The notes under the pieces were generated by a model. The model was not told the DNA's origin. It did no database searches and saw nothing but the letters and a program-made list of their open reading frames with translations. A stretch of 64,000 bases of DNA, from NCBI RefSeq assembly GCF_964245445.1, contig NZ_CAXTNE010000006.1:3909-67908 (forward strand), given 5' to 3'. Every line of letters begins with the position of its first letter. Within the stretch, counting starts at the first letter, position 1. Both the position numbers and the translations under genes were made by a program. This DNA is from an uncultured Nostoc sp. (GTDB taxonomy: Bacteria; Cyanobacteriota; Cyanobacteriia; Cyanobacteriales; Nostocaceae). Positions 269-46,046 of the stretch are shown here, in pieces.

Positions 269-306
269 AAAATATTGCTGGTTTTTGTAGTTTGACAGGG
301 GAGATT

Positions 307-6614: not shown

Positions 6615-7871
6615 ATGAATATATTTGAAAAGCGTGAATCAAATGTCAGAAGCTATTGCCGCAATTTTACCGCAATCTTTCATAGAGCTAAAGGTTCTAT
6701 AATTTATTCTGAATCAGGTAAAGAATATATTGATTTTTTAGCAGGAGCAGGTGCTTTAAATTATGGACATAATCACGACTATATCAAAGAAAAGGTGATC
6801 TCATACTTAGATGCCGATGGAATAACACATGGTTTGGATATGTATACTTCGGCTAAGGAGAAATTTTTAGCCAAGTTTGATGAGGTAATACTAAGTTCAA
6901 CAAAACTAGATTATCGCATTCAGTTTTGTGGACCAACAGGAACAAATGCAGTTGAAGCTGCTTTAAAACTAGCGAGAAAAATCAAACGAAGAACAGGCAT
7001 ATTTTCCTTCATGGGAGCATATCACGGAATGACTTTAGGGAGCCTATCGATTAGTGGCAACATCGAAATTAGAGCAGGCACAATTGGTACATCAAGTAAT
7101 GTAAATTTTATGCCTTATCCCTATGGATTCATGGAGAGTTTTGACACAATAGAATATATAAATTCTGTTTTAAATGATGTCAAGTCCGGAATTGAAAAAC
7201 CAGCAGCAATAATCTTTGAAACAGTGCAGGCTGAAGGTGGAGTTGTTGTAGCTCCCATTGAGTGGATGCAAAGACTAAGAAGGTTATGTGACGAGAATGA
7301 TATTTTATTAATCTGCGATGATATTCAGGTTGGCTGTGGTCGAACAGGCTCTTTCTTTTCCTTTGAAAGAGCAGATATTGTTCCCGATATGGTAGTACTT
7401 TCTAAATCTATTAGCGGGTACGGGTTTCCAATGTCACTATTATTGATTAAACCAGAATTGGATATATGGGAACCAGGTGAGCATAATGGTACTTTTCGGG
7501 GTAATCAATTGGCATTTATAGGAGCAACAGCGGCTCTAGAGTATAGAGAAAGTAGCAATCTCGAACAAGATGTCAAAGCCAAAGAACTTTTTTTGAAAAA
7601 TTTTCTCACTCAGCAAATAGCACCAATTAGTGAAAAGATAGCAATACGTGGAATTGGTATGATTTGGGGTATTGATTTAAAAAGTTTTGGCGGCAATAGT
7701 TTTGCTAAAAGTATAACATCACGTTGTTTTGAGCTAGGATTAATAGTTGAACGCGCAGGTAGAAATGATACTGTAATTAAAATTTTGCCCCCTTTGGTAA
7801 TTGATATGTCTACCTTAGAAAAAGGTTGTTCAATTATCAAAGAAGCTTTTAATGACTGCATGTCAAATTAA
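6615..7871 (+). CDS. Diaminobutyrate--2-oxoglutarate transaminase (EctB/Dat-like class III aminotransferase)
   Basis: ESNVRSYCRNF N-terminus, GPTGTNAVEAALKLARK, ETVQAEGG, DDIQVGCGRTG, PLP lysine in LSKSISG. Confidence 0.92.
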   Translation: MNIFEKRESNVRSYCRNFTAIFHRAKGSIIYSESGKEYIDFLAGAGALNYGHNHDYIKEKVISYLDADGITHGLDMYTSAKEKFLAKFDEVILSSTKLDYRIQFCGPTGTNAVEAALKLARKIKRRTGIFSFMGAYHGMTLGSLSISGNIEIRAGTIGTSSNVNFMPYPYGFMESFDTIEYINSVLNDVKSGIEKPAAIIFETVQAEGGVVVAPIEWMQRLRRLCDENDILLICDDIQVGCGRTGSFFSFERADIVPDMVVLSKSISGYGFPMSLLLIKPELDIWEPGEHNGTFRGNQLAFIGATAALEYRESSNLEQDVKAKELFLKNFLTQQIAPISEKIAIRGIGMIWGIDLKSFGGNSFAKSITSRCFELGLIVERAGRNDTVIKILPPLVIDMSTLEKGCSIIKEAFNDCMSN

Positions 7872-23626: not shown

Positions 23627-25273
23627 ATGACATCGAGCAGCCAAGAAATGCTAAACAAGAATTACCTTTTTGAATCTGAACAGGTATTACATGATGGGAT
23701 AGAAGAGCAAGTAATGCAAATGTTTGCTTCATTCAATCAGGTAAACTCTATTGAAAAACAAATAGATGAAATAACTGATAATATTTCTCAAGATTTTTTA
23801 AGCAATATTGACTCTAATACCAACATTGATTTAGACTCACTATTAGAAAAGTTTTCTGATAGTAAAATTCCAGTTCAGCCCACTAATTTTGAGGGCTATC
23901 TTAAGTACATAGGCAATAATCTTGTTGCTCATTCAATACATACATCTTCGCCACGATTTATTGGTCACATGACCTCGGCACTTCCTAGTTTTGTACGCCC
24001 TTTGGCTAAACTCATGACGGCAATGAATCAAAACGCCGTCAAAATAGAGACAGCTAAAGCCCTCACCTTCTGTGAACGTGAGGCTTTGGCTATGTTGCAT
24101 CGACAGATTTATAATTTCTCTGACGGTTTCTACACTCAACATATTCAAAATAACCTCAGTACACTAGGAATCTTAGTTTCTGGTGGAACAGTGGCGAATA
24201 TCTCAGCACTTTGGTGCGCGCGAAATGCTTCACTAGGGCCAAAAGATGGATTTCTCGGCGTAGAAAAAGAAGGTTTAGCAGCTGCTCTAGATTTCTATGG
24301 CTACAAAGGAGCAGTAATTATTGGCTCTGACTTGATGCACTACTCTTTTGATAAAGCTGCGGATTTGATGGGCATTGGTACTCATAGTTTGATAAGAATT
24401 CCTGCTGACTGTAATAATCGAGTTAACTTACAAGCACTGCGCCAAACTGTTATAGACTGTCGTAACCAAAACTTACTAATTATCGCAATTGTAGGGGTTG
24501 CTGGCACGACAGATTCAGGTGGAGTTGATTCCCTTAAAGATATTGCGGAGATTGCACAAGAAGCCAATGCTCATTTTCACGTAGATGCTGCTTGGGGTGG
24601 CCCACTGATTTTTTCTGAACAATATCGGTATAAGCTTGCTGGTATAGAAAAAGCTGATTCAGTCACTATTGATGGACATAAACAACTGTATTTGCCAATG
24701 GGTATTGGTATGGTCTTTTTCCGCAACCCCTATCTAGCTTCTTCAATCGAAAAACAGGCTAGCTATACCATGCGTAAGGGATCGTTTGATTTAGGTAAAC
24801 GTGCTTTAGAAGGTTCTCGGCCGGGCATGGCTTTATTTTTACACGCTGGTCTAAAACTAATTGGGCTTAAGGGATATGAGTTTTTAATTGATGAAGGAAT
24901 CCGCAAAACTCAATACATGGCTGCTCGGATTTCGGCGATGCCTGAATTTGAATTGTTGGCAGAACCTGATACTAATTTGTTAATCTATCGCTATATTCCA
25001 GAGCAATTTAGAGGGCTGATTGCCAAAACACAGTTAACAGAAACAGATAATCAAATTATTAATGATTGTAATGAATATTTACAAAAGATGCAGCGTCATA
25101 TCGGTCGCACTTTTATCTCACGAACAACGAAAATAACTATCAGCTTGGACAAAGAAATTCCTATAATTGCCATGCGTGCAGTAATTGCTAATCCATTAAC
25201 GACTGAAGAAGATATTGAGGCTGTTTTAAATGACCAAATTCAGATTGCTTCTGAAATTTCACTTTCATATTGA
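23627..25273 (+). CDS. panP: PLP-dependent group II decarboxylase, PanP-type aspartate 1-decarboxylase-like (beta-alanine supply)
   Basis: HTSSPRFIGHMTSALP and NQNAVKIETAK match the PanP-type family as I recall it; HVDAAWGG; PLP lysine in DGHKQLY; EGSRPG. Confidence 0.75.
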   Translation: MTSSSQEMLNKNYLFESEQVLHDGIEEQVMQMFASFNQVNSIEKQIDEITDNISQDFLSNIDSNTNIDLDSLLEKFSDSKIPVQPTNFEGYLKYIGNNLVAHSIHTSSPRFIGHMTSALPSFVRPLAKLMTAMNQNAVKIETAKALTFCEREALAMLHRQIYNFSDGFYTQHIQNNLSTLGILVSGGTVANISALWCARNASLGPKDGFLGVEKEGLAAALDFYGYKGAVIIGSDLMHYSFDKAADLMGIGTHSLIRIPADCNNRVNLQALRQTVIDCRNQNLLIIAIVGVAGTTDSGGVDSLKDIAEIAQEANAHFHVDAAWGGPLIFSEQYRYKLAGIEKADSVTIDGHKQLYLPMGIGMVFFRNPYLASSIEKQASYTMRKGSFDLGKRALEGSRPGMALFLHAGLKLIGLKGYEFLIDEGIRKTQYMAARISAMPEFELLAEPDTNLLIYRYIPEQFRGLIAKTQLTETDNQIINDCNEYLQKMQRHIGRTFISRTTKITISLDKEIPIIAMRAVIANPLTTEEDIEAVLNDQIQIASEISLSY

Positions 25274-30042: not shown

Positions 30043-33000
30043 ATGAATACCAATATAAAACAAGAACAAACAGCAAATATAGATATAGCAATAGTGGGAA
30101 TGTCTGGTCGTTTTCCTGGAGCAAAAAATATTGATGATTTTTGGCATAATCTTCAAAATGGTGTTGAATCTATTTCATTTTTTTCCAATCATGACTTAGT
30201 AGATTTAAATATTGAAGAGGAAGTTTTAAACGAATTCAATTATGTTAAAGCAGCACCTGTATTAGAAGATATTGAGTATTTTGATGCTAGGTTCTTTGGT
30301 TGCAGCCCTAAAGAAGCTGAAGTAACGGACCCCCAACATCGCCTATTCATAGAATGTGCCTGGGAAGCTCTTGAAAATGCTGGATACGATCCAGAAACCT
30401 ATGAAGGTTTGATTGGGGTTTACGCTGGCGTAAGTACAAATAGTTACTTTTTTCACAATATATATGAAAACGTTAATTTAATAAATATTTCCAATAACTA
30501 TACTCTAAACAAAGACTTTTTGACGACCAATATATCGTATAAATTAAATTTAAAAGGGCCAAGTATAGGTATCCAAACTTACTGTTCTACTTCATTAGTT
30601 GCTGTACATTTAGCCTGCAAAAGTTTACTTGATGAAGAGTGTGATATTGCTTTAGCAGGTGGGGTTACGATTATAGTTCCACAAAAGTCAGGTTACTTAT
30701 ATGAAGAGGACGGAATTTTGTCTCCTGATGGTCATTGTCGAGCCTTTGATGCTAAAGCACAGGGTACTATTTTCGGCAGTGGACTGGGAATAGTCGTCTT
30801 AAAAAGATTAAAAGATGCAATAGCAGACAGAGATTACATTCATGCAGTTATTAAAGGTTCAGCAATCAACAATGATGGCTCTTTAAAAGTTAGCTATACA
30901 GCACCTAGTGTAAATGGCCAGGCTGAAGTTATTGTAGAGGCTCTGGCAAATGCCGGAATAGATGCTGATGATATTTCCTATATCGAAACTCATGGAACTG
31001 GAACAGCTGCTGGAGACCCAGTAGAAATTGCTGCGCTCACTAAAGCTTTTCGTGCTTTTACGCGAAGAAATGGCTTCTGCGCTGTAGGTTCAGTAAAACC
31101 AAATATTGGACATCTAGACACAGCATCTGGTGTTGCAAGTCTGATCAAAACTGTCCTAGCATTAAAATATAAACAAATACCTCCTAGTATAAATTTTGAA
31201 GCTCCCAATCCTGAGATTGATTTTGCCAACAGTCCCTTCTACGTTAATACTAAACTTACCGAGTGGAAAGCTAACAATACTCCCCGTAGAGCAGGAGTTA
31301 GTTCCTTAGGTTTTGGTGGAACTAATGCCCATCTGATTCTGGAAGAAGCCCCTTACATTAAATATTTTGATGACTCTAGACCTTGGCAATTGATATTATT
31401 ATCAGCCAAAACTAGCACAGCCTTAGATACTGCGACTGAAAATTTGGTTACGTATTTAAAACAATATCCAGATATAAATTTAGCTAATGTTGCTCACACT
31501 CTAAAAGTGGGTCGTAGAGCTTTTAACCATCGCCGAATTTTGGTGTGTGAGAGTGTTCAAGATGCTGTAAACTTATTGGCAACACAGGCGCAGGAACGGA
31601 TTTTTACTGTATGTCAAGAGCATAGAGAACAGCCAGTCATCTTGATGTTTTCAGGACAAGGGTCACAATATGCAAACATGGGTCGGGAACTGTATGAAGT
31701 CGAACCGACGTTTAAAAAACATGTAGATACTTGCGCTGTGATTTTGCAATCTCATCTAGGTATTGATATCCGTTCCCTACTTTATCCCAGAGAAGAAGAT
31801 ACTCAAGCAGCTTGTTTGCAACTACAACAAACAGCCCTCACCCAAAGCGCGTTATTCGTTACAGAGTACGCCCTGACTCAGTTATTAATGTCTTGGGGTG
31901 TGCGACCAGAAGCAATGATTGGTCATAGTATTGGGGAATATGTCGCTGCAACCATTGCAGATGTATTTTCTCTAGAGGATGCCTTAAAAATTGTGGCAAA
32001 AAGAGGACAGTTGATGCAACAGTTGCCCTCTGGGAGTATGCTGGCAATCAGGCTGCCAGAAAAAGATGTGCAGTTGCTGCTGTCTGCACAAACGTTGTAT
32101 AAAACATCTCTACAAATCGCAGCGATTAACAGCCCATCTTCTTGTGTAGTTTCCGGAACAAACGAAGCAGTTGCAGCCCTAGAAAAGCAATTATCCTCTC
32201 AAGAAGTTGAATGTCAGCTGTTACATACATCTCATGCGTTTCATTCTGTGATGATGGAGCCAATATTGTCAGCATTTATTCAGGCGATAAAAACAGTCAA
32301 ACTGAATCCACCACGCATCCGTTTTATTTCTAATGTAACTGGTAGTTGGATTAGTAAAGAGCAAGCGACAAATCCCGATTATTGGTGTCAACATTTACGA
32401 GAAACTGTAAGATTTTCAGATGGGATATCCCAACTTATACAGGAATTTGAAGGTGTTTTTCTGGAGGTGGGACCAGGGCGAACTTTAAGTACATTAACGA
32501 CACAGCATTTGGATGGAAATGCCAAGCAACAGGTATTGACTTCATTACGCCATGTTAAAGAACAGCAATCGGATGTTGCTTGGTTGTTGCAAACATTAGG
32601 TCGCTTGTGGCTTTCTGGTGTCGAAATAGATTGGTCGGGATTTTATACCCATGAGCAGCGTCATCGTTTGCCTTTGCCTACTTACCCCTTTGAACGACAA
32701 AGGTACTGGATTGATGCGAAATCCCCATCCACTTCAGTAAATACAAAATTAATAACATTAGATCATAAACAAGATATTGCTGACTGGTTTTATATTCCTT
32801 CATGGAAGCGCTCTTTACTGCATAATTCATCCTCTTATTCAATAAAATCTGCACAACAAAAATGGCTATTTTTTGTGGATGATTTGGGAATGGCGAAAAA
32901 AGTAATTGGTGTGTTAAAAAATCAAAATAAAAATACTATTTTTGTTAAAAAAGGAGAGTATTTTAGTAAGTTAAGTGAGGGTATTTATACAATTAATCCA

Positions 33001-34674
33001 TATATAAGTGAAGACTACAATACCTTACTAAAAGAATTAGTATTATCAGGTCAAACTCCAGAAAATATTGCTTATTTCTGGAGCGTAAGCTATGTTGAAA
33101 CCCGTCAAAAATGGAATTATTTAGAATTAAACAGTTTACTATTTTTAATGCAGAGCCTTAGTAAGCTGAAAATTAGCGATCGCTTACAAGTTTTGGTTGT
33201 ATCGAACAATATCCAAGAGGTTAATGGTAACGAAAAACTGGACACAGAGAAAGCAGCCATATTAGGTTTATGTAAAGTCATCCCTCAAGAGTATCCTAAT
33301 ATTACTTGTCGATGTATCGATATTGCTTTAACTAATCGCAAAGACGCAGAAAAAGGACAAGAAGATTGTGAGAGTAATATTATTGACCAACTTTTGGATG
33401 AGTTGACCTCTGTATCCTCAGACATGGTAGTTGCTTATCGCGATCGCTACCGTTGGGTACAAACGTTTGAGCCAGTTCGCTTAGAGTCAGTAGTTAACGA
33501 AAAAACACCATTGAGAAAACAAGGTGTTTACCTGTTTACTGGCGGTTTAGAAAGTATTGAAGTTGTGCTTGCAGAATATTTAGCAAAAACTTTTCAAGCA
33601 AAACTCATATTTATTGAGGATTTTAGCTTCCCAGAAAAAGACGATTTCTCGCAATGGCTGGAATCTCACACTCAAGAAGATGAAGTGAGTTGCAAAATTC
33701 AACAATTGCTTGTATTAGAAAAATTAGGTGCAAAAGTTTTGGTAATGCGTGCAGATACAACTAATTATGAGCAAATGTCTCAAAGTCTTGCATCTGAAAA
33801 TATTAGACAAATTAATGGGGTCATTTATTCAACTGGAATAAAACGCGAAAATATATTTGGTTCCATTCCAGAAATTGGTAAAATAGAATTACAAAAACTT
33901 TTAGACTCCCAACTTTGTAAGATTACAGTATTAGAACAAGTCTTACAAAATATAAAATTAGATTTTTGTATTATTTTTTCTTCTTTATCTTCCATTTTAG
34001 GAGGATTTGGATTAGGCTTATATTCAGCAGCTAATCAATCCATTGACACCTTTACTAACCGACACAACAGGAATAATTCTTTTCCGTGGTATATTATAAA
34101 TTGGGATAAATTACAACTGAATACTAACCAAGAAGAAACAACACTTGCTCAAGTATCTGGGTCAAAATTAGATATTACCCAAACAGAAACTGTAGAACTA
34201 TTTAAACGAGTATTTTCTTTAAGAGAAGGAACTCAAATTATTCTTTCTAAAGTAGATATTAATATAAGAAAGAATCATATATTTAGCCTCAACTCTCTGG
34301 CAACTTCAACATCAACTAATCAATTAGATTTATCTTCACACTACTCTAGACCTAGCCTTAGTAATTCCTATGTTGCTCCGACAAATGAGTTGGAAAAACA
34401 AATTACAGAAATATGGCAAGAGGTACTTGGGATTGCAGAAATTGGTATTTACGATAACTTCTATGAGTTAGGAGGCGACTCACTGATTGCAACTCAATTA
34501 GTTTCTCGATTGCGAACCAAATTCCCTGTAGACTTACCACTACGTGATATTTTATTTGAAGCAATGATACCAGCCAAACAAGCAGAAATAGTTGAACAAC
34601 TTCTGTTGGAAAAAATCGAAGAATTATCTGAAGAAGAAGCAGTTCTTTTGTTATCAGTTTTCCAAAATAGTTGA
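30043..34674 (+). CDS. Type I PKS KS-AT(malonyl)-KR(degenerate)-ACP
   Basis: KS TYCSTS, ETHGT, GHL; AT GHSIG with HAFH; KR NADPH motif reads GGLESIE (33541-33561) and HAAG is replaced by YSTG; ACP GGDS. Confidence 0.93.
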   Translation: MNTNIKQEQTANIDIAIVGMSGRFPGAKNIDDFWHNLQNGVESISFFSNHDLVDLNIEEEVLNEFNYVKAAPVLEDIEYFDARFFGCSPKEAEVTDPQHRLFIECAWEALENAGYDPETYEGLIGVYAGVSTNSYFFHNIYENVNLINISNNYTLNKDFLTTNISYKLNLKGPSIGIQTYCSTSLVAVHLACKSLLDEECDIALAGGVTIIVPQKSGYLYEEDGILSPDGHCRAFDAKAQGTIFGSGLGIVVLKRLKDAIADRDYIHAVIKGSAINNDGSLKVSYTAPSVNGQAEVIVEALANAGIDADDISYIETHGTGTAAGDPVEIAALTKAFRAFTRRNGFCAVGSVKPNIGHLDTASGVASLIKTVLALKYKQIPPSINFEAPNPEIDFANSPFYVNTKLTEWKANNTPRRAGVSSLGFGGTNAHLILEEAPYIKYFDDSRPWQLILLSAKTSTALDTATENLVTYLKQYPDINLANVAHTLKVGRRAFNHRRILVCESVQDAVNLLATQAQERIFTVCQEHREQPVILMFSGQGSQYANMGRELYEVEPTFKKHVDTCAVILQSHLGIDIRSLLYPREEDTQAACLQLQQTALTQSALFVTEYALTQLLMSWGVRPEAMIGHSIGEYVAATIADVFSLEDALKIVAKRGQLMQQLPSGSMLAIRLPEKDVQLLLSAQTLYKTSLQIAAINSPSSCVVSGTNEAVAALEKQLSSQEVECQLLHTSHAFHSVMMEPILSAFIQAIKTVKLNPPRIRFISNVTGSWISKEQATNPDYWCQHLRETVRFSDGISQLIQEFEGVFLEVGPGRTLSTLTTQHLDGNAKQQVLTSLRHVKEQQSDVAWLLQTLGRLWLSGVEIDWSGFYTHEQRHRLPLPTYPFERQRYWIDAKSPSTSVNTKLITLDHKQDIADWFYIPSWKRSLLHNSSSYSIKSAQQKWLFFVDDLGMAKKVIGVLKNQNKNTIFVKKGEYFSKLSEGIYTINPYISEDYNTLLKELVLSGQTPENIAYFWSVSYVETRQKWNYLELNSLLFLMQSLSKLKISDRLQVLVVSNNIQEVNGNEKLDTEKAAILGLCKVIPQEYPNITCRCIDIALTNRKDAEKGQEDCESNIIDQLLDELTSVSSDMVVAYRDRYRWVQTFEPVRLESVVNEKTPLRKQGVYLFTGGLESIEVVLAEYLAKTFQAKLIFIEDFSFPEKDDFSQWLESHTQEDEVSCKIQQLLVLEKLGAKVLVMRADTTNYEQMSQSLASENIRQINGVIYSTGIKRENIFGSIPEIGKIELQKLLDSQLCKITVLEQVLQNIKLDFCIIFSSLSSILGGFGLGLYSAANQSIDTFTNRHNRNNSFPWYIINWDKLQLNTNQEETTLAQVSGSKLDITQTETVELFKRVFSLREGTQIILSKVDINIRKNHIFSLNSLATSTSTNQLDLSSHYSRPSLSNSYVAPTNELEKQITEIWQEVLGIAEIGIYDNFYELGGDSLIATQLVSRLRTKFPVDLPLRDILFEAMIPAKQAEIVEQLLLEKIEELSEEEAVLLLSVFQNS
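31633..32714 (+). repeat. ~1082-bp direct repeat, copy 2
   Basis: Same sequence as 26937-28018. Confidence 0.95.
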
Positions 34675-35476: not shown

Positions 35477-35663
35477 TATAATTGCAGAGATTAGTGGCTA
35501 AGTCAAAATTAATTTTTTTGATGATAGGACTTGTCACTTAATAAGCTTTTGATAACAGTATAGTTATCTGAATCAAGAGTTTGGGAATGAGAATTTTTAT
35601 TAAGCGGCAAGTCAAAATTTAGCTAAAAAACTAAAAATAATAAATATTAATAATTTCTTGGCA

Positions 35664-38600
35664 ATGGATAAACAAGACTTTAATTTATCACCAGCGAAAA
35701 AAGCCCTTTTAGAAAAATGGAAGAGAGGAAATATTCAAGCTGATATTATCCCCAAACGTCAAGTATTTAAAAATATTCCCTTATCTTTTTCTCAACAAAG
35801 ACTGTGGTTTATTGACCAGCTTTATCATGGGAGTTCTTTCTACAATATTCCCATCGCTTTTCATATCAAAGGACAGCTGAATATTAAAGTACTTCAGCAA
35901 AGTCTGAATGAAATTCTCAAACGTCATGAAGTTTGGCGCACAACTTTTAGCGTTGTAAATGGAGAGCCAGTACAGGAGATTGCACCCCAATTAACTTGGG
36001 ATTTACCCATTATTAATCTTGAGCATTTGTCTGGTAAAGATTGGGAATCTGAGGTTAAACAACTTGTAGCAGAGTCAGCGAAAAAACCTTTTAATTTAGC
36101 TAAAGGACTTTTAGTCAGAGCAACTTTACTTCGCTTGAGTGAAGAAGAACACATTTTGCTTGTGACCATGCACCACATTATTACAGATGGATGGTCTTGT
36201 AGTGTGTTCCTGCGCGAGCTGTCAATGCTATACGCTGCTTTCTTGACAAATCAACCTTCTCCCTTACCCGAACTCCCCATTCAGTATGCAGATTTTGCAA
36301 TTTGGCAACGCGATCGCATCCAAGGTGAATTCCTCGCAACCCAACTAAATTATTGGAAGCAACAACTCAAAGCTGAGTTACCTGTACTACAATTACCTAC
36401 ATACCGTCCGCGACCTAAGGTTACTACTTTCAGTGGTGCCAAGCAGTACTTTACATTCTCAAAAGCCCTAACTGACGTACTCAGACAATTAAGCCAGCGA
36501 GAAGACGCGACTTTATTTATGAGTTTGCTGGCAGCATTTAACATATTATTATATTGTTACACAGACCAAGAAGATATCTTAATTGGTTCTCCAATTGCCA
36601 ACCGCAACCGCGCAGAATTAGAAGGGATGCTAGGTTTATTTGTTAATACTTTGGTGTTACGTAATAACCTCAGTGGTAATCCCAGTTTCCGCGAATTTTT
36701 ACATCGAGTCCGTGAGGTGACTCTCGATGCTTATGCACATCAAGATTTGCCTTTTGAGATGCTTGTGGAAAAATTGCAACCCGAACGCCACTTAAGCCGA
36801 AATCCACTTTATGAAATCATGTTTGTCCTGCAAAATACTCCAACGTCTGTGCAGGAAGTGTCTGGATTAACCTTACGTACCTTGGAATTTGATAGTGGAA
36901 CAGCTCAACTAGATATTTTCTTGTCGATATCTGAATCTCAAGAAGGGTTAACAGGGTCTTTGGAGTACAATACAGATATTTTTGATTCAACAATGATTAC
37001 TCAATTTATCAACAATTTCCAAACATTGTTAGGGAATATTGTTGATAATCCAGAGCAGCGCATCAGTGAGTTGTCACTACTAACTGCTTCTGAGCAAGAA
37101 CAACTATTATTTAAATTTAATCAAACTAGTGCTGATTATCCTCAAGATACATCTTTGCATCAATTATTTGAGCAACAAGTAGAATTAACACCTGATTCTT
37201 TAGCGTTAATTAGCCAGTCTGAGAAACTGACTTATCGTCAACTTAACCACAAAGTTAATCAACTTGCACATTATCTACAAAAACAGGGTGTAACAAAAGA
37301 AACGCTGGTTGCCCTATGTGTGGAACGCTCCATAGAGATAGTGACAGGAATTTTAGCTATTCTTAAAGCTGGTGGTGCATACATTCCCCTCGATCCAAGT
37401 TATCCAGTGGAACGCCTGAATTTCATGCTCTCTGATTCCCAAGCATCGCTGTTAATTACCAAGCAAGAGATATTAGAAAAACTATCATTATCTTCGGCTA
37501 AAACCGTTTGTTTAGATATCCAAAAAGATGAAATCGCTCAAGAAAGTTCGGAAAATCCCATTAACATTTATTTATTTGATAATCTCGATAATCTCGCCTA
37601 TATTATCTACACTTCTGGCTCAACTGGAACACCTAAAGGCGTTCTTGGCACTCATCGCGGTACAGTCAACGGCTTACACTGGTTATGGAAAACCTATCCT
37701 TTTACGCAAGGAGAAGTTTGTTGTCAAAAAACAGCTACTAGTTTTGTAGATTCTGTATGGGAAATTTTTGCTCCTTTACTTCAAGGAATTCCTACAGTAA
37801 TTATCAGCAATGCAACTATACTAGACCCGCAACTATTTATAGAAGCTCTGGCACATCACAAAGTAAGCCGTATTATACTTGTACCTTCACTACTAGGCTT
37901 ACTTGTTGATAATTACAGTCATTTGACCAAAAAATTATCGCAGCTAAAACTTTGGATAACTAGCGGGGAAACACTATCTATTAACTTAGCTAAAACTTTT
38001 CGAGAATTAATGCCATTTGTAAAATTAATTAACTTTTATGGCTCCTCAGAAGTTTCCGCCAACGCTACTTACTATGATACTAGTTTATTACAAGAGCAAG
38101 CCAGCAGTGTCCCTATCGGTAGTGCTATTGACAATACTCAAATTTATGTGTTGAATCGTGATTTAAAATTAACACCTATAGGAGTGATTGCAGAACTTTA
38201 TATTGGTGGTGATGGATTGGCGAAGGGTTATTTACATCGTCCGGAATTAACTCAAGAAAAATTTATTGATAACCCCTTTGTTCCTGGAACCAAGCTTTAC
38301 AAAACAGGCGATTTTGTGCGTCATCTAAACGATGGTAGTCTAGAGTATTTGGGTCGTCAGGATGAACAAGTAAAAATTAGAGGTTTTCGAGTAGAATTGG
38401 ATGAAATTACGGCTGCGATCGCCCAACATCCAGATGTACAAGAATCTGTTGTCATTGCCAGCAATGATGCTCAAGAAAATCAGCGTTTGATTGCCTATGT
38501 CGTCACAAATAAACAGGATTTAACTACACAACTTTTGTCCTATTTGCAGCATCAATTGCCTAATTACATGCTGCCATCTGCTTTCGTTGTGCTGGATAAG

Positions 38601-39770
38601 CTCCCACTTACACCTAATGGCAAAGTAGATAAGCGTTCTCTGCCAATTGATGAAGTTATCCGATCAACTACTATCCAATCATTTGTTGCTCCTCGGAATT
38701 TTACAGAATTATCATTAGTAAAACTTTGGGAAAATCTCCTAAATACTAACCCTATTGGGGTAACAGATAACTTCTTCGACTTGGGTGGTCACTCGTTTTT
38801 AGCTGTACGCTTAATGGCTCAAATTCATGACAGATTCGAGCATAATCTTCCCTTGTCTACTCTTTTTGAAAACCCGACAATTGAAAAACTAGCAAGCATT
38901 GTCAGTCAGCCAGCCCGTCAGAGTTCTAATTCTCCTCTAGTAGCAATTAATTCTTCTGGTTCTAAGATACCTTTTTTCTGTATGCATGGTGCTGGTGGAG
39001 GTATTAGTCACTATTTTAATTTATCCCGAAGACTTGGTGAAGATTATCAATTTTACGCTTTGGAAGATACCTTAGAACAAGACAAACCAGAAATTATTTC
39101 AGTAGAAGAGACAGCAACTCGCTACCTCCAAGAAATTCGTAAAATACAACCAAATGGCCCTTATCTTTTAGGTGGTCATTGTTATGGCGGTGTACTTGCT
39201 TTTGAAATAGCGCAACAATTACAAAATAAGGGTCAAACAGTAAGTTTATTAGTTGTCATCGATGCCATACTATCAGAAACACCCATTGAATCTACAGACG
39301 ATGACGATGCAAAATTTTTACTCCGCATCGCTGAATCAATAAAAACCGATAATAATATAGACTTTGTAGTACCTTTTGAAGAACTTCGAGATTTGCCATT
39401 AAATCAGCAACTTCATTTTATTAATCAAAAAGCAAAGTTCATCTTTAGCGATACAGAAATTAACGATTTTCTTCACCATTACAATCTGTTTAAAGCTCAT
39501 GTCCAAGCTATGCGAGGTTATATTCCGCAGATTTATCCAAAAAAAATGACTTTATTCCGAGCAAAGGAGGAAATAATCCATGATTTTGAAAGCCCTGAAT
39601 GGAATACCGACGATCCATTTCTAGGTTGGGAGAAATTTTCAAATCAACCTATACAAATAATTGAAATTCCAGGCGACCATTTTTCAATTTTCGTAGAACC
39701 TTATATTGAAGAATTAGCTAAACGTTTGAAAATTTGTATCGATCATGCTGTGTGCGATCTAAATAATTAA
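35664..39770 (+). CDS. Terminal NRPS C-A(beta-Ala)-T-TE
   Basis: C MHHIITDGWS. A domain SFVDSVWE has Val at the usual Asp235 position; code by eye VDWIISFANK is close to the beta-Ala code VDWVISLADK. T GGHS; TE GGHCYGG and GDHFS. Confidence 0.93.
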   Translation: MDKQDFNLSPAKKALLEKWKRGNIQADIIPKRQVFKNIPLSFSQQRLWFIDQLYHGSSFYNIPIAFHIKGQLNIKVLQQSLNEILKRHEVWRTTFSVVNGEPVQEIAPQLTWDLPIINLEHLSGKDWESEVKQLVAESAKKPFNLAKGLLVRATLLRLSEEEHILLVTMHHIITDGWSCSVFLRELSMLYAAFLTNQPSPLPELPIQYADFAIWQRDRIQGEFLATQLNYWKQQLKAELPVLQLPTYRPRPKVTTFSGAKQYFTFSKALTDVLRQLSQREDATLFMSLLAAFNILLYCYTDQEDILIGSPIANRNRAELEGMLGLFVNTLVLRNNLSGNPSFREFLHRVREVTLDAYAHQDLPFEMLVEKLQPERHLSRNPLYEIMFVLQNTPTSVQEVSGLTLRTLEFDSGTAQLDIFLSISESQEGLTGSLEYNTDIFDSTMITQFINNFQTLLGNIVDNPEQRISELSLLTASEQEQLLFKFNQTSADYPQDTSLHQLFEQQVELTPDSLALISQSEKLTYRQLNHKVNQLAHYLQKQGVTKETLVALCVERSIEIVTGILAILKAGGAYIPLDPSYPVERLNFMLSDSQASLLITKQEILEKLSLSSAKTVCLDIQKDEIAQESSENPINIYLFDNLDNLAYIIYTSGSTGTPKGVLGTHRGTVNGLHWLWKTYPFTQGEVCCQKTATSFVDSVWEIFAPLLQGIPTVIISNATILDPQLFIEALAHHKVSRIILVPSLLGLLVDNYSHLTKKLSQLKLWITSGETLSINLAKTFRELMPFVKLINFYGSSEVSANATYYDTSLLQEQASSVPIGSAIDNTQIYVLNRDLKLTPIGVIAELYIGGDGLAKGYLHRPELTQEKFIDNPFVPGTKLYKTGDFVRHLNDGSLEYLGRQDEQVKIRGFRVELDEITAAIAQHPDVQESVVIASNDAQENQRLIAYVVTNKQDLTTQLLSYLQHQLPNYMLPSAFVVLDKLPLTPNGKVDKRSLPIDEVIRSTTIQSFVAPRNFTELSLVKLWENLLNTNPIGVTDNFFDLGGHSFLAVRLMAQIHDRFEHNLPLSTLFENPTIEKLASIVSQPARQSSNSPLVAINSSGSKIPFFCMHGAGGGISHYFNLSRRLGEDYQFYALEDTLEQDKPEIISVEETATRYLQEIRKIQPNGPYLLGGHCYGGVLAFEIAQQLQNKGQTVSLLVVIDAILSETPIESTDDDDAKFLLRIAESIKTDNNIDFVVPFEELRDLPLNQQLHFINQKAKFIFSDTEINDFLHHYNLFKAHVQAMRGYIPQIYPKKMTLFRAKEEIIHDFESPEWNTDDPFLGWEKFSNQPIQIIEIPGDHFSIFVEPYIEELAKRLKICIDHAVCDLNN

Positions 39771-39788
39771 TGGGAGTGAAAAAAGCTG

Positions 39789-41129
39789 ATGAAACTACCT
39801 CCAGGACCGAAAACTCCTTCTTGGTTGATAGCTCTACAATTTAAGGCTGATCCCTTTGGCTATATGGATACTATTTCCAAACGTTATGGTGATATTGTCA
39901 CTTTAATGTTTGGCTTTACACCAAGAATTTATATCAGTAATCCTTCAGCAATAAAGGAGATTTTTACAAATACCAAGGAAATTGTAGCTGGGGGTGAGTT
40001 GAACCCGGAGTTCGTCTTGATGACAGGAAATCAAGGAGTTCTCCAACTTGATGGTTTAATTCACAAAAATCGACGCAAACTGTTAATGCAGAGTTTTCAT
40101 GGAGCGCGGATGCAAGCCTGTGGGCAACGTATATGCGAACTTACAGAAAAAATTATCAGTCAACAGGCAGTCGCAAAGCATTTTGTTGCATACCCAATAA
40201 TTGAAGATATTACCTTGCGAGTGGGTATAGAAGTTGTAATGGGTTTATATAGAGGAGAGCGCTATGACAAAATTAAGCATTTATTTGTGTCTGCACTTAG
40301 ACATGGAGAATCTCCAGTAAATAAGATTCTTAGCAATATTTTTGGAGAAAGAGATTTAGGTCGATGGAGTCCATATGGTTCTCTCCTTCACCTTCGACAA
40401 CAACTTTTTCAATTGCTATTGAGTGAGGTGGAAGAACGTCGCAAGCAAGCAGATTTTTCACGCGTTGATATGATTAGCGATCTGATATTTGCTAAAGATG
40501 AAACAGGTCAACCACTAAGTAATGAAGAAGTACGCGACCTCTTATTATCGCCTATATTTGCAGCTGGTGATGCTTCCGGAACTGCGATCGCTTGGTCTTT
40601 GTACTGGATTCACCGTTTACCTTATATTCATCATCGCCTGCTATCAGAACTAGACAGCCTTGGTGAAAACCCAGATCCCATGAGCATTGTTGCACTACCC
40701 TACCTCAGCGCAGTTTGTAATGAAGCCTTACGAATTTACCCAACTCAGTTGTTTACATTTCCCAGGCTGGTAGAGTCTCCAGTCGAGGTGATGGGTTACA
40801 AGTTGAATCCTGGTACAATAGTTATTGGTAATATTTATTCCACTCATCAACGCGAAGATTTATACCTTAATCCAAAAGAATTTCAGCCAGAGCGCTTTTT
40901 AGAAAAACAATTTTCTCCCTACGAATTTTTCCCATTTGGTGGCGGCTCTCGGGTTTGTATTGGCGGGACTTTTGCTCTATTTGAAATGAAACTTATATTA
41001 GCAACTATTCTTTCCCGTTATGAATTAGAGCTAGTTAGTCAGCGCCCAGAACGTCCCAAATTTGGAGGTCTAATTTGTTACCCAGCTAGCGGCGTCAAGA
41101 TGGCCGTGCGTGGTCTGCGTCAACATTAA
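39789..41129 (+). CDS. Cytochrome P450 (CYP110-like)
   Basis: KLPPGP N-terminus, EALR (ExxR), PERF, heme motif FGGGSRVCIG. Confidence 0.95.
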   Translation: MKLPPGPKTPSWLIALQFKADPFGYMDTISKRYGDIVTLMFGFTPRIYISNPSAIKEIFTNTKEIVAGGELNPEFVLMTGNQGVLQLDGLIHKNRRKLLMQSFHGARMQACGQRICELTEKIISQQAVAKHFVAYPIIEDITLRVGIEVVMGLYRGERYDKIKHLFVSALRHGESPVNKILSNIFGERDLGRWSPYGSLLHLRQQLFQLLLSEVEERRKQADFSRVDMISDLIFAKDETGQPLSNEEVRDLLLSPIFAAGDASGTAIAWSLYWIHRLPYIHHRLLSELDSLGENPDPMSIVALPYLSAVCNEALRIYPTQLFTFPRLVESPVEVMGYKLNPGTIVIGNIYSTHQREDLYLNPKEFQPERFLEKQFSPYEFFPFGGGSRVCIGGTFALFEMKLILATILSRYELELVSQRPERPKFGGLICYPASGVKMAVRGLRQH

Positions 41130-41215
41130 CGACAGTCATAGCCATCGATTGCTGACTTAGTTTAAAACCTATCTTAAAACCTATCAATTATTTAACATTT
41201 CTCAGAAAAATACCA

Positions 41216-42550
41216 ATGAAACTACCTGATGGCCCAAAAACTTCTCGCCGATTACTCAGTCAATTTGAGACTGATCCCCTTACCTTCATGGATACTATGG
41301 GCGATCGCTATGGCGACATTTTCACTATTATGGCTGATTCAATACCTCTAGTAATAATCAGCAACCCAGAAGGGATGAAGCAGATTTTTACTAATGCAAA
41401 AGAGATTACAGCTTCTGGTAAGTTGAATCAAGGTGGAGAATCAATTGTCGGCAAGAATGGGTTGCTTGCACTAGATGGGTTGCGTCACAGAAATCGCCGT
41501 AAGTTGTTGATGTCACCGATGCGCGAAACTCAGACACAAGAATATGGACAGCATATTTGTAGAGTCACAGAAAAAGTTATGAATCAACTGACTTTAGGTA
41601 AATCTTTTCTTGCTTATCCCACTATGCAAAAGATTACCCTAGAAGTAGTTTTGCCATCATTATTTGGGTTACATCAAGGAGAGCGTTACGAACAATTTCG
41701 ACAACTGTTTTCTAATCTAATAAGTTACGCTCGGTCTCGCTGGCTGGACATCTCTCTGTCCTATCCTTTTCTAAAGAGGGATTTGGGTCCCTGGAGTCCT
41801 TGGGGATACTGGCTTCACTTACAACGACAATTTGACAAACTGCTCCACATCGAAATTGAAGAGCGTCACCAACAAGTAAATGCTTTGCGTACCGATGTAT
41901 TATCAGAACTGGTATTTGCTTACGATGAAACTGGTCAAGCAATGACCTATGAATATATACGAGATTTGTTTCCATCATTGCTATTTGGTGGTCAAGATGC
42001 GTCAGCCACTGCTATAAGTTGGTCTTTGTACTGGATTCATAGTACACCTGGTGTTCGCGATCGCTTATTAGAAGAACTTGACAGTCTTGGTGAATCCCTA
42101 GAACCTGGGAAGATTATTGCATTACCTTACTTAAATGCTGTTTGTAATGAATCCCTACGAATTTATCCAACTCAGGTTGTGACATTTCCACGACTTGTAG
42201 AATTACCAATTGAAGTCATGGACTACAAATTAGACCCAGGTACCGTAGTAAGAGGATGTATATACTTAACTCATCAACGAGAGGATTTATATCCACAACC
42301 AAAGCAATTCAGACCAGAGCGCTTTCTAGAAAAAGAATATTCTCCCTATGAGTTTCTACCATTTGGTGGTGGCGCTCGTCGCTGTCCAGGTGAGTTATTA
42401 GCACTTTTTGAAATGAAACTGGTATTAGCAACAATTCTCTCACGCTATCAATTAGCGTTAGCAGATAAAAGAGTAGAGAAACCTAAGGCTAGGGGCGTTA
42501 ACTATCCTCCTGCTAGTGGCTTGAAGATGGTAATGCTTGGGTCACGGTAA
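41216..42550 (+). CDS. Cytochrome P450 (CYP110-like), tandem paralogue
   Basis: KLPDGP, ESLR, PERF, heme motif FGGGARRCPG. Confidence 0.95.
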   Translation: MKLPDGPKTSRRLLSQFETDPLTFMDTMGDRYGDIFTIMADSIPLVIISNPEGMKQIFTNAKEITASGKLNQGGESIVGKNGLLALDGLRHRNRRKLLMSPMRETQTQEYGQHICRVTEKVMNQLTLGKSFLAYPTMQKITLEVVLPSLFGLHQGERYEQFRQLFSNLISYARSRWLDISLSYPFLKRDLGPWSPWGYWLHLQRQFDKLLHIEIEERHQQVNALRTDVLSELVFAYDETGQAMTYEYIRDLFPSLLFGGQDASATAISWSLYWIHSTPGVRDRLLEELDSLGESLEPGKIIALPYLNAVCNESLRIYPTQVVTFPRLVELPIEVMDYKLDPGTVVRGCIYLTHQREDLYPQPKQFRPERFLEKEYSPYEFLPFGGGARRCPGELLALFEMKLVLATILSRYQLALADKRVEKPKARGVNYPPASGLKMVMLGSR

Positions 42551-42568: not shown

Positions 42569-43945
42569 ATGACTTCACAAAACCAATCTAAAATAAAAAA
42601 GGAGATCCTTCAAGGTAACATCTTAAAACTGATGTTCAAGTTATCAGCCCCTGGCATTCTAGTAATGCTGCTGATTAATATGAATGCTTTTATTGATGCT
42701 CTATTTGCTGGGCAGTTTATAGGAGAAACAGCAATTGCTGGCATATCTTTATCTCTACCACTTACTGCTATCATCGATGGTTTTGCTTACTTAGTTGGAA
42801 CAGGTTCAGCTTCTGTCCTGAGCCAAGCTATTGGTGCTGGAGATATAAAAACTCAGTCCAAAATATTTGGCAATTTAATTATAATGGGTATTTTTATATC
42901 CTTTTTTATTACTATAATTGGCTACAGTTTTAGTGAAGAATTAATTAAATTAATGGGAGGAAGTGGTCAAGTAGCTTTTGTCGGTTCTGAATACTTTAAA
43001 ACTTATATGCTAGGCGCAGTATTTTATATTTTAGCAGTAGCTTCCAACCAACTTATTAAGTCAGAAGGTAAAGTTAGATTAGCTATGACTTTTGCAGGTA
43101 TTTATGTCATTATTAATATAATTTTAAATCCTATATTTGTTGTAGTTTTTCATTGGGGTATCCGGGGAATTGCTCTTGCTACTGTTATTGCTATGATAGT
43201 ATTTTGTATAATAAACTTTATATACTTCTTATCTGGTAAAAGTTCTATTCCAGTGAATCCTAGAAAGCTGGCTCTAGCAATAAATTTACTTCCGAGAATT
43301 TTATCAGTGGGAATGTCAGCATTACTCGCTAATGTTATGGAATTAGTTCAAAATTTTGTTGTTTTTAAATCTATCTCCTATTACGGAACAAATAGTGATA
43401 TTGCTTTCTACGGAGCAACTATAAGATTGACTTTATTAGCATTCATTCCTTTAAATGGATTTGTGCAAGCATTACAACCAGTGATTGGCATAAATTATGG
43501 AGCCAAAAATTATGATAGACTGAAAAAAGCTTATTTTACTTTTATTATTTCTGTGACTGCTTTAGCTGTGTTATTTTGGTTGCCAATGCAATTATCACCA
43601 GAAATATTTTTAAGTTGGCTATTGCCAAATTCGACTTTCACAAACAATGATTTACTCAATTTTCGCGTTTTGAGTTTATTAATACCAACAATAGCTTTTG
43701 TTCCCTTTGGTTCAGTTTTATTTCAGTCTATAGGAAAGGGTAAAACTGTTTCTATAATAATTATTTTAAATAATCTAGTTTTATTTATTCCATTAGTGGT
43801 TATTTTATCAAATTTACTAGGTGTTAGTGGTGTATATTATGGAATAGCTATAACAGACTTTTTACTGATGATTATTGCACTTCTGTTAACATTTATTGAA
43901 TTCAAAAAAATGAATATAAATCATCTCAAAGATAATCATTATTAA
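42569..43945 (+). CDS. MATE family efflux transporter
   Basis: About 12 hydrophobic segments; IDALFAGQFIG, SQAIGAGD, NIILNPIF, GIRGIALAT, QPVIGINYGAKNYDR. Confidence 0.9.
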   Translation: MTSQNQSKIKKEILQGNILKLMFKLSAPGILVMLLINMNAFIDALFAGQFIGETAIAGISLSLPLTAIIDGFAYLVGTGSASVLSQAIGAGDIKTQSKIFGNLIIMGIFISFFITIIGYSFSEELIKLMGGSGQVAFVGSEYFKTYMLGAVFYILAVASNQLIKSEGKVRLAMTFAGIYVIINIILNPIFVVVFHWGIRGIALATVIAMIVFCIINFIYFLSGKSSIPVNPRKLALAINLLPRILSVGMSALLANVMELVQNFVVFKSISYYGTNSDIAFYGATIRLTLLAFIPLNGFVQALQPVIGINYGAKNYDRLKKAYFTFIISVTALAVLFWLPMQLSPEIFLSWLLPNSTFTNNDLLNFRVLSLLIPTIAFVPFGSVLFQSIGKGKTVSIIIILNNLVLFIPLVVILSNLLGVSGVYYGIAITDFLLMIIALLLTFIEFKKMNINHLKDNHY

Positions 43946-44027: not shown

Positions 44028-44906
44028 ATGCCTCTAAAACATAAAGGTGCTATCGTAATTACAGGAGCATCAACAGGTGTAGGCAGAGCAGCAGCTCTTA
44101 TGCTTGACAAAAAAGGATATCGAGTGTTTGCATCAGTCCGTAAAGAAAAAGATGCTGAATCTCTCAAGAGTGATTCCTCCGAGAATTTGACACCGATTTT
44201 CATGGATATTACAAAAGCAGAAGAAATCAAATCTGCCGCAGATATTGTTTCAAAATCTATTCCTGATGAAGGATTAGTAGGATTAGTAAATAATGCTGGT
44301 CTGTTAGTTGATGGGCCACTGGAGTTTATTTCGCTTGATGATCTGAGATGGCAATTTGAAGTCAATGTTTTTGGGCAAATAGCAGTGACGCAGGAATTTT
44401 TACCGTTAATCCGAAAAGTTAAAGGTCGGATTATTAATATTGGCTCTATCGGAGGAGTAATTTCTGGACCATATATCTCTGCTTTGTGTGCTTCCAAGTT
44501 TGCGTTAGAGGCATTTACCGATGCTCTGAGAATAGAATTACATCCTTGGGGAATCGAAGTTATCTTAATTGAACCAGGCTCAATTGCATCTGCGGCTCCG
44601 GATAAAGTAGAAGAAAGCTTTAGAAAAAATTTTGCCAATATGTCACCTGATGCTAAAGCAATGTATGGAGATACATATAAACTTTTTGTAGAAGATTTAA
44701 TTCAATCAAATCGTGAAGGGATGCCGCCGGAACAAGTTGCAGATGCAATTATAAAGGCTTTAGAAGTCAGGAAGCCTAAAACACGTTATTTCTTATCTAA
44801 GGGGCAGCTAGGTTTAATGCTTGAACTAGTGCTGAAAAAATTTACACCAGACCGTAGTTATGATGCAATGATTATAAAAAGTTTGAATTTAAAACATCAG
44901 ATTTGA
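44028..44906 (+). CDS. Short-chain dehydrogenase/reductase with atypical catalytic motif
   Basis: TGASTGVG, LVNNAG, EVNVFG, IEPGSI; the YxxxK position reads LCASK. Confidence 0.9.
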   Translation: MPLKHKGAIVITGASTGVGRAAALMLDKKGYRVFASVRKEKDAESLKSDSSENLTPIFMDITKAEEIKSAADIVSKSIPDEGLVGLVNNAGLLVDGPLEFISLDDLRWQFEVNVFGQIAVTQEFLPLIRKVKGRIINIGSIGGVISGPYISALCASKFALEAFTDALRIELHPWGIEVILIEPGSIASAAPDKVEESFRKNFANMSPDAKAMYGDTYKLFVEDLIQSNREGMPPEQVADAIIKALEVRKPKTRYFLSKGQLGLMLELVLKKFTPDRSYDAMIIKSLNLKHQI

Positions 44907-45005: not shown

Positions 45006-46046
45006 ATGATTTCATCTGATTCAAAACCTAATAATACAGACTTTCAAATCAGTCCGATAGAATGGGTACATGCTTACTGGGTTTCACGGTGTATCTATGT
45101 CGTCGCTAAACTTGGTATTGCTGATTTGCTAAAGGATGGTTCTCAACATTGCGATATTTTAGCTGCTGCAACAAATACGCATAGTGATTCTCTATATCGA
45201 GTTTTGCGGGCGATCGCCAGTATCGGAATTTTTGCGGAGACACAAACTCGATGCTTTGAGCTAACACCATTGGCAGATTGTTTACAAAGCAACGTTCCTG
45301 ACTCAATTCGTGCTATGGCTATTTTCCGAGGTGAAGAGCATTACTATAAATCCTGGGGAAATTTAATGTATTGCTTACAAACTGGTAAAAGTGCCTTTGA
45401 AGATTTGTATGGTATGGATTTGTTTGAATACAATGAACAGAATTCCAGCCGAGGAGAAATCTTCGACCAGGCTATGACTTCATCAAAAGATTCTTATACC
45501 GAACACCTGGAAGCTTATGATTTTTCGTCAATTAATAAGCTAATAGACGTTGGTGGTGGTAAAGGGAGCTTTTTAGCTGCTGTACTCGAAGCTAATCCTA
45601 CTATGATAGGAGTATTGTTCGATCAGGCAGAAGTGATTAATAGAGCCAAGGATTCACAAGAAATAGCATCCGTTATTAGTCGTTGTCAGCTTGTAGGAGG
45701 TAGCTTTTTTGAAGCTCTGCCACAAGGAGGAGATGCTTATGTTCTTAAACATATTATTCAGGACTGGGATGACGAGCGATCGCTTGCTATTCTTCAACGT
45801 TGTCATCAAGCCATGATAGAGCAAGGACGGGTTTTAGTGATAGACTACGTACTTCCTCCTGCTAACGAGTTTTCAGGAAGCAAGTTTATAGATGTCAACA
45901 TGTTAGTAATGTGTCCAGGTGGACGTATTCGTACTGAAGCTGAGTTTGAAGATTTATTTAAATCAGCAGGTTTCAAACTTACTAAAATTTATCCAACACA
46001 ATCGGATGTTAGTATTATTGAAGGAGTTAAAATAGATATCAATTAA
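45006..46046 (+). CDS. Family-2 O-methyltransferase-fold SAM methyltransferase with dimerisation domain
   Basis: AKLGIADLL dimerisation region, LIDVGGGKG, GSFFEALP, KHIIQDW, GGRIRTEAEF. Confidence 0.9.
   Translation: MISSDSKPNNTDFQISPIEWVHAYWVSRCIYVVAKLGIADLLKDGSQHCDILAAATNTHSDSLYRVLRAIASIGIFAETQTRCFELTPLADCLQSNVPDSIRAMAIFRGEEHYYKSWGNLMYCLQTGKSAFEDLYGMDLFEYNEQNSSRGEIFDQAMTSSKDSYTEHLEAYDFSSINKLIDVGGGKGSFLAAVLEANPTMIGVLFDQAEVINRAKDSQEIASVISRCQLVGGSFFEALPQGGDAYVLKHIIQDWDDERSLAILQRCHQAMIEQGRVLVIDYVLPPANEFSGSKFIDVNMLVMCPGGRIRTEAEFEDLFKSAGFKLTKIYPTQSDVSIIEGVKIDIN

Follow-up and report, generated by a model that had tools for sequence, protein, structure and literature searches.

P450s that work without the conserved threonine of the I helix represent natural experiments in oxygen activation. 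In P450eryF (CYP107A1), the 6-deoxyerythronolide B hydroxylase, Ala stands in place of this Thr, and PMC8960966, citing Cupp-Vickery 1996, describes a hydroxyl group of the substrate as essential to O2 activation. The functions on record for canonical members of the CYP110 family include fatty-acid binding (CYP110A1), hydroxylation of germacrene A (CYP110C1), and flavone synthesis/hydroxylation (CYP110E1) (PMC7014017). The census of Khumalo et al. (2020) also prints CYP110Q2, CYP110Q3, and CYP110Q4 with the I-helix motif AAxDAS and CYP110AT1 with GGRDAS; in Calothrix sp. 336/3 as well as in Nostoc sp. CENA543, the genes for CYP110AT1 and CYP110Q4 adjoin each other within “NRPS, T1PKS” clusters (NRPS, nonribosomal peptide synthetase; PKS, polyketide synthase) whose similarity to clusters already known does not exceed 40% (PMC7014017). 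For CYP110Q and CYP110AT, the census gave names only and no function (PMC7014017). Here, we describe a tandem pair of P450 genes of these two subfamilies, P450-A and P450-B, found in a 64,000-nucleotide stretch of DNA from an uncultured Nostoc sp. (contig NZ_CAXTNE010000006.1, positions 3,909 to 67,908; the whole stretch is referred to as the window). Both genes very probably encode working, pathway-dedicated heme-thiolate P450s with an ancestral, selectively retained Thr-less I helix. A full-text literature search for CYP110 together with the I helix and threonine returned no paper.

The two open reading frames (ORFs), P450-A (39789–41129, + strand, 446 aa) and P450-B (41216–42550, + strand, 444 aa), lie in tandem directly 3′ of the last NRPS gene of a Nostoc-type hybrid NRPS–PKS cluster, which occupies the + strand from a start upstream of base 292 to about position 46,050 of the window. 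Their products are 56% identical to each other and match the Pfam p450 profile (PF00067) with 237.4 bits (P450-A) and 236 bits (P450-B) at a cut-off of 22.8. The I-helix motif reads AAGDAS in P450-A (40560–40577, + strand) and GGQDAS in P450-B (41987–42004, + strand), i.e., the alcohol position of the canonical acid–alcohol pair, (A/G)Gx(D/E)T(T/S), is occupied in both by Ala262 (GCT at 40572–40574 and GCG at 41999–42001, respectively), flanked in P450-A by Asp261 and Ser263. The acid–alcohol pair is widespread among P450s but dispensable, as known members such as P450eryF do without it. Three independent alignments agreed on this register, placing Asp261–Ala262 opposite Glu-Thr of CYP120A1, His-Thr of CYP51, and Asp-Thr of CYP1A1/1A2; a PDB search with the I-helix fragment gave the same register and retrieved no solved P450 with the same motif. 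In the AlphaFold (AF2) model of P450-A (pLDDT 87.5, pTM 0.88), the motif is located in the middle of a long I helix (residues 245–276), and Foldseek aligned the model with CYP51, CYP120A1, and BM3 at TM scores of 0.83–0.86.

The remaining hallmarks of the fold are in place. The ExxR motif (EALR in P450-A, 40722–40733, + strand; ESLR in P450-B) begins at residue 312, PERF at residue 367, and the heme-ligand loop at residue 383; the stretch from PERF to the loop covers 40887–40964 (+ strand) in P450-A, ending in FGGGSRVCIG, and 42314–42391 (+ strand) in P450-B, where the motif reads FGGGARRCPG. All three motifs are invariant across 45 clade members, including E312 and R315 of ExxR as well as F383, G384–386, R388, and C390 of the loop. 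An earlier note on this DNA, made from the letters alone, had described twin P450s in which the I-helix threonine is missing at these coordinates while ExxR, PERF, and the heme Cys are intact, and every one of these readings was reproduced. The same note had pointed out that the window holds no ferredoxin or reductase gene; indeed, none was present among the Pfam matches of its larger ORFs, and a six-frame scan for Fe–S motifs yielded no credible match. Still, cyanobacterial P450 genes rarely adjoin the gene of a redox partner, and the absence of such a gene from the window is uninformative.

Under the P450 naming convention, in which members of one family share over 40% identity and those of one subfamily over 55%, P450-A belongs to CYP110Q and P450-B to CYP110AT. 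The former is 70% identical to a homologue (P0101) that is CYP110Q3 letter for letter, and the latter is 65% identical to one (P0172) that is CYP110AT1 letter for letter; P450-B also has a 95% identical counterpart (P0124) in an unclassified Nostoc. In the tree with canonical CYP110 outgroups, P450-A falls into the A lineage and P450-B into the B lineage of the Q/AT clade, so that the identity to named members and the tree place both proteins within CYP110.

The spread of the Thr-less helix was assessed in the 120 best homologues of each protein, in 204 homologue clusters overall, and in a wider-family library of representatives at 50% identity, where the whole Thr-less group is a single representative and its 149 other best matches were compared. 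Nearly all of the best homologues read x-D-A-S. At the Thr position, 196 of the 204 clusters carry Ala, six carry Thr, and two Gly; the following residue is Ser in 185 clusters, and the preceding acid is kept in 179 (178 Asp, one Glu). Nineteen A-type clusters are devoid of the acid as well (QGAS, QHAS, and similar). Among the 149 library representatives, the same position is occupied by Thr (117), Ser (14), Pro (9), Asn (4), Ala (4), or Val (1). The earlier note had singled out D-A-S as a feature to be followed through the homologues, reasoning that its commonness in ordinary CYP110-type hydroxylases would speak against a special significance; the motif occurs in none of the 149 library representatives and in none of the 75 nearest CYP110s outside the clade (44–51% identity), which carry AG[H/Y]ETT. 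A genome scan that returned 79 loci gave a concordant picture: the helix is Thr-less in all 27 in-clade loci (a set that includes loci fetched earlier), and the nearest outside loci, about 58 with 44–51% identity, show AG[H/Y]ETT almost throughout.

When near outgroups are included in the tree, the Thr-less proteins group into a single clade on a long stem (FastTree SH-like support 0.998, stem 0.205) with no canonical sequence within it. Only six positions separate this clade from its neighbors, and two of them are the replacements Glu261Asp and Thr262Ala. Since Ala is found in lineage A, in lineage B, and in the basal “DAA” lineages, the loss of Thr predates the A/B duplication. The Ala state is also being maintained, because Thr is a single transition away from Ala, yet across the loci the turnover of the Ala codon (GCT/GCG/GCA) is synonymous; the Ser codon varies synonymously, too. 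The tree and the codons thus indicate that the Thr-to-Ala and Glu-to-Asp replacements arose once, on the stem of the clade and before the A/B split, and have been kept by purifying selection. This bears out the view of the earlier note that the D-A-S change is older than the duplication and has been maintained: Ala is shared by both lineages and the basal ones and persists in 196 of the 204 clusters despite the turnover of its codon. Likewise, the twins appear in the tree as old paralogues with orthologues in many genera, not as a recent local duplication. The earlier interpretation is supported in part: its evolutionary argument and the CYP110 assignment stand. The Thr loss is an inherited trait of the subfamilies, present in hundreds of genomes and neither private to this genome nor a rare local event.

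A sister lineage of P450-B (L005, 10001–11377; L007, 11681–13066; L021, ~7958) reads AGRNTE at the motif. Members of this lineage act as the second P450 in Nostoc sp. UHCC 0926, Phormidium nigroviride, and Microcoleus asticus.

The clade is tied to a single type of pathway terminus. A homologue of the terminal NRPS protein with its thioesterase (TE) domain, displaying 56–91% identity, the same adenylation (A) code, and the same nucleophilic Cys, adjoins the P450 gene or genes at every Nostocales locus with enough flanking sequence. Among the 27 in-clade loci, as far as the flanks suffice, only two, both from Oscillatoriales, are without a neighboring NRPS-TE, and genes for a MATE efflux protein and a short-chain dehydrogenase/reductase (SDR) usually follow. 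These two Oscillatoriales loci have the order P450–P450–SDR–MATE alongside another kind of assembly line, which runs divergently and includes a salicylate-synthase-like gene. The NRPS-TE/MATE/SDR cassette accompanies none of the ~58 canonical CYP110 loci. By this distribution, the CYP110Q/CYP110AT pair appears to exist only as tailoring enzymes of one orphan cyanobacterial NRPS–PKS cluster family.

Within that family, loci with a single P450 always possess the A type, the second P450 being optional. An O-methyltransferase (OMT) gene is present in nine of the 14 twin loci and in none of the six single-P450 loci, which suggests that the second P450 may make a hydroxyl group that the OMT methylates. 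In the window, the corresponding genes follow P450-B on the + strand: the MATE gene (42569–43945, Pfam match), part of the conserved P450/SDR/MATE tailoring and export cassette; the SDR gene (44028–44906), another cassette member; and the OMT-fold methyltransferase gene (45006–46046, Pfam match), encountered in related loci only alongside the second P450. Deviating arrangements exist as well. In a relative from run X1, the OMT gene follows P450-B with almost no gap, and the MATE and SDR genes are missing. On a scaffold of Nostoc minutum NIES-26 (L023, 885–4255), the cassette is decayed or mis-scaffolded, with the NRPS-TE in two fragments and P450-A reduced to its C-terminal 184 residues ahead of an intact P450-B.

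P450-A of the window shows two further peculiarities. It is 13 residues shorter than its 458–459-aa orthologues (which end in ...RQNKRQSQPSVVGLV): the stop TAA at 41127–41129 cuts off a vestige of the C-terminal tail (41130–41165, + strand; relatives end in ...RGLRQNKRQSQPSVVGLV), a second in-frame stop, TAG, stands at 41139, and the frame runs on as H*RQS*PSIADLV*, the asterisks denoting stops. Such a loss through two stop codons could be taken as a sign that one member of the pair no longer functions and persists through linkage alone. We regard this as very improbable: the missing tail follows the final strand of the fold, and its sequence varies among orthologues (in the consensus of 45 sequences, it is mostly x). 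None of the catalytic motifs is damaged, each lineage has been retained in many genera, and the closest orthologues of P450-B are likewise 444 aa long. The tail being outside the fold, its loss is probably harmless. The second peculiarity is a mosaic tract at ~39600–40400, which spans the final part of the NRPS gene and the first half of P450-A. Here, the identity to the closest related cluster (L002, from an unclassified Nostoc) drops to 66–78% at the nucleotide level as compared with 92–98% in the flanks, and the tract is nearer to the L001/L012 type (82–90%). It looks like recombination has replaced the N-terminal, substrate-recognition half of P450-A.

The terminal NRPS module (35658–39770, + strand) has the architecture condensation–A–thiolation–TE (C-A-T-TE); its A code, VDWIISFAN, displays the V–D shift typical of beta-amino acid codes and is beta-alanine-like, while the nucleophile motif of the TE, GHCYG, contains Cys in the nucleophile position. 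The code was read against a GrsA fragment as the reference. Both features are conserved in four relatives, the Cys motif as GHCYG or GWCYG. A pyridoxal phosphate (PLP)-dependent aspartate 1-decarboxylase of the PanP type (23627–25273, + strand; NCBIfam equivalog TIGR03799, 614.7 bits at a cut-off of 606.1) is encoded within the assembly line and, as its family assignment indicates, supplies beta-alanine. In the last PKS module (30043–34674, + strand; ketosynthase–acyltransferase–ketoreductase–acyl carrier protein, KS-AT-KR0-ACP), the NADPH site of the KR domain (residues ~1161–1355) is destroyed, with GGLESIE for GGLGGIG and YSTG for HAAG, and the domain scores 70 bits as compared with 167–170 bits in the other two PKSs. 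The KR is probably inactive, which would leave a beta-keto group ahead of beta-alanine. The genes at this end of the cluster also include one for a free-standing methyltransferase.

Taken together, the A-domain codes of the cluster predict (D-)Ala, a diaminobutyrate (Dab)-like unit, a Lys/Orn-like unit, and beta-alanine. These units also bear on the possibility that the P450s act during assembly on units tethered to a carrier protein, e.g., by beta-hydroxylation of an amino acid bound to a peptidyl carrier protein (PCP), and not on the released product. There are well-known P450s that oxidize PCP-bound amino acids in trans, and the position of the pair directly after the last NRPS gene would suit such a role; still, none of the predicted units is a typical target, no solved P450 reaches 25% identity to the pair, and the P450s travel in a post-assembly cassette with MATE, SDR, and OMT genes, which in Phormidium accompanies another type of assembly line. 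Carrier-bound action is hence judged quite improbable.

Several other features of the assembly line were recorded. A gene for an EctB-type diaminobutyrate transaminase (6615–7871) lies inside it, adjacent to an A domain whose code, DIWEISADD, is acidic. Two NRPS proteins of the condensation–A–thiolation–epimerization type (C-A-T-E; 292–5016 and 15480–20135) are 71% identical overall, and no difference at all separates their A domains (~530 residues, code DLFNNALTY; 100% identity), a sign of homogenization at the domain level or of a recent copying of the A domain. Anachelin was considered as the product and ruled out, since the predicted units (D-Ala, Dab-like, Lys/Orn-like, and beta-alanine) do not fit it. 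Literature searches for the product of the cluster found nothing describing the cluster.

A pathway with a similar logic has been described for kirromycin. There, an aspartate decarboxylase supplies beta-alanine, the last NRPS module loads it, and a Dieckmann cyclization affords the pyridone precursor; deletion of kirOI yields 5,6-dihydrokirromycin, so the P450 KirOI is needed for the C5–C6 double bond (PMC5818483). From this parallel, a proposal in three steps was derived for the window cluster. First, the Cys-TE would release the chain by ring closure onto beta-alanine to give a 3-acyl-4-hydroxy-5,6-dihydro-2-pyridone, as in kirromycin. Second, the ever-present CYP110Q would oxidize the dihydropyridone ring or its immediate surroundings, the likeliest reaction being a hydroxylation at C5/C6 with loss of water to an aromatic pyridone in a KirOI-like manner. 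Third, the optional second P450 (here, CYP110AT) would add a hydroxyl group, which the co-occurring OMT would methylate. Oxygen activation without Thr could proceed via Asp261, Ser263, and ordered water, probably aided, in the manner of P450eryF, by a hydroxyl or enol function on the substrate; the enolic 4-OH close to C5/C6 could be such an assisting group. Electrons would come from the housekeeping ferredoxin and ferredoxin–NADP+ reductase.

As a whole, this is the best explanation we can offer, although we put its chances at slightly under even. Its parts are to be taken with different reserve: substrate-assisted proton delivery, argued by analogy, is tentatively suggested, and the specific dihydropyridone reaction, again an analogy, is more speculative and rather unlikely to be right in every detail. 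In more general terms, the conjecture of the earlier note that the pair might rely on EryF-type substrate assistance or perform non-standard chemistry is a reasonable possibility in light of the literature.

A number of observations weigh against the proposed pathway. The closure of the ring by the Cys-TE is inferred, and hydrolysis or macrolactamization onto a Dab or Lys side chain would be equally possible by sequence. KirOI belongs to a different CYP family. The Oscillatoriales loci L007 and L021 show no beta-alanine NRPS-TE in the upstream 10 kb (L007) and 6.5 kb (L021) available. The association of the OMT gene with the second P450, with a one-sided Fisher probability of ~0.012 calculated by hand, carries no correction for shared ancestry. 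The AGRNTE lineage has regained Thr and replaced the acid by Asn, with Glu following, i.e., the pathway tolerates other I-helix solutions. No member of the clade has a known product, substrate, or activity. Finally, 32 of the 149 canonical-family representatives (about one fifth) have a residue other than Thr, so the loss of Thr need not signal any special chemistry.

The last of these points agrees with the view that the twins are ordinary hydroxylases, in which the smaller Ala frees space above the heme so that a bulky or polar substrate fits, and in which Asp261, Ser263, and water suffice for proton delivery, the substrate playing no part. Beyond fit, the loss of Thr would then carry no mechanistic meaning. 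The retention of Ser after Ala and of the acid in most clusters of the clade (185 and 179 of 204) would be in line with such a relay, as would the heme loop, PERF, and ExxR, which are the same as in normal P450s dependent on electron transfer. At the same time, of the mere six substitutions that define the clade, two make up the conversion of Glu-Thr to Asp-Ala, this conversion falls exactly together with the recruitment into one pathway, and the acid-less members (QGAS, QHAS; 19 clusters) are difficult to reconcile with a purely protein-based relay. We consider ordinary hydroxylation possible, if on the unlikely side. Another option is non-hydroxylating chemistry by one or both enzymes, such as dehydrogenation or aromatization via direct O–H/N–H abstraction, N-hydroxylation of a lactam, C–C, C–N, or C–O coupling, or peroxide-driven turnover. 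The general argument of the earlier note applies here, Thr-less P450s (cf. P450eryF) are over-represented among such enzymes, the predicted enolic, lactam-containing end group would suit these reactions, and an SDR is always nearby. Against it speaks the lack of CYP152/CYP74 signatures in the pair, whether as a profile or as the I-helix Arg-Pro: the NCBIfam profile of CYP152 CypC reached 55–66 bits, over the C-terminal part only, where the cut-off is 600, and the length of the heme loop is normal. The candidate reactions are, moreover, not distinguishable by sequence. This option seems improbable to us.

Returning to the proposed dihydropyridone pathway, its end product might be of a particular kind. 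Acting with the SDR and the OMT, the CYP110Q/CYP110AT pair could turn a dihydropyridone derived from beta-alanine into a metal-binding head group of the (methoxy)pyridone type that is hydroxylated or N-hydroxylated; we consider this idea a long shot. Hints of a metal-binding product come from the Scytonema version of the cluster, adjoined by genes of iron-siderophore transport (FecCD, ABC) and MbtH, and from the salicylate-synthase-like gene by the Phormidium version. If true, it would mean a new class of cyanobacterial metallophores and a new type of CYP110 reaction, with the Thr loss reflecting catalysis assisted by the enol of the substrate; the product would then represent a widespread family of Nostocales metabolites, including those of lichen-symbiotic Nostoc.

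As to expression, this strain was detected in none of the public sequencing runs searched (best word share 0.23–0.45). In a lichen metatranscriptome (run X20), the NRPS-TE, both P450s, and the OMT are matched by short contigs of a relative that are 92–98% alike, a weak indication that transcription of a related cluster takes place in lichens. These transcripts come from a relative, and contaminating DNA is possible; this, too, limits the support for the proposed pathway.

Overall, Thr-less biosynthetic P450s are already a known kind, the subfamily pair described here is already named, widespread, and pathway-restricted, and the established knowledge of P450s is not overturned. What makes the finding valuable is how cleanly an I-helix change is associated with one orphan pathway. 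It also offers a natural comparative series for models of proton delivery, i.e., about 200 clusters with Ala, a few acid-less ones, and a sister lineage in which Thr is back and the acid is gone. Further, the pair marks the tailoring end of a widespread orphan family of Nostocales NRPS–PKS clusters, common in lichen cyanobionts, and testable roles can be assigned to its genes: oxidation of the core for CYP110Q, and an optional hydroxylation and methylation for the second P450 and the OMT.

A comparison with known systems puts the pair in perspective. Nothing different in kind separates it from the named CYP110Q and CYP110AT proteins, which are its orthologues. With the canonical CYP110s, it shares the CYP family, the fold, and the motifs, the nearest members being 44–51% identical; these, however, carry AG[H/Y]ETT in place of Asp-Ala-Ser and have no NRPS-TE/MATE/SDR cassette alongside. 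P450eryF is a polyketide-tailoring P450 with Ala at the Thr position (Ala262 in both window proteins), and its motif, Glu-Ala-Ser, parallels Asp-Ala-Ser of the pair, but it belongs to an unrelated CYP family of actinomycetes, acts on a macrolactone, and falls outside the 60 best PDB sequence matches. In the fungal tenellin pathway, the P450s TenA and TenB tailor a PKS–NRPS heterocycle into a hydroxylated, iron-binding 2-pyridone; that route starts from a tyrosine-derived tetramic acid and involves ring expansion, so the likeness is one of analogy only, with no sequence relationship to the pair. The resemblance to kirromycin biosynthesis (KirOI with KirD, KirB, and KirHI) is one of pathway logic: a dedicated decarboxylase, a last module loading beta-alanine, and a P450. 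Kirromycin relies on a free-standing Dieckmann cyclase and a pyruvoyl-type decarboxylase, whereas the window cluster encodes a Cys-TE (GHCYG), with no KirHI-like gene seen, and a PLP-type decarboxylase; KirOI itself is closest to TiaP2, which lies outside CYP110.

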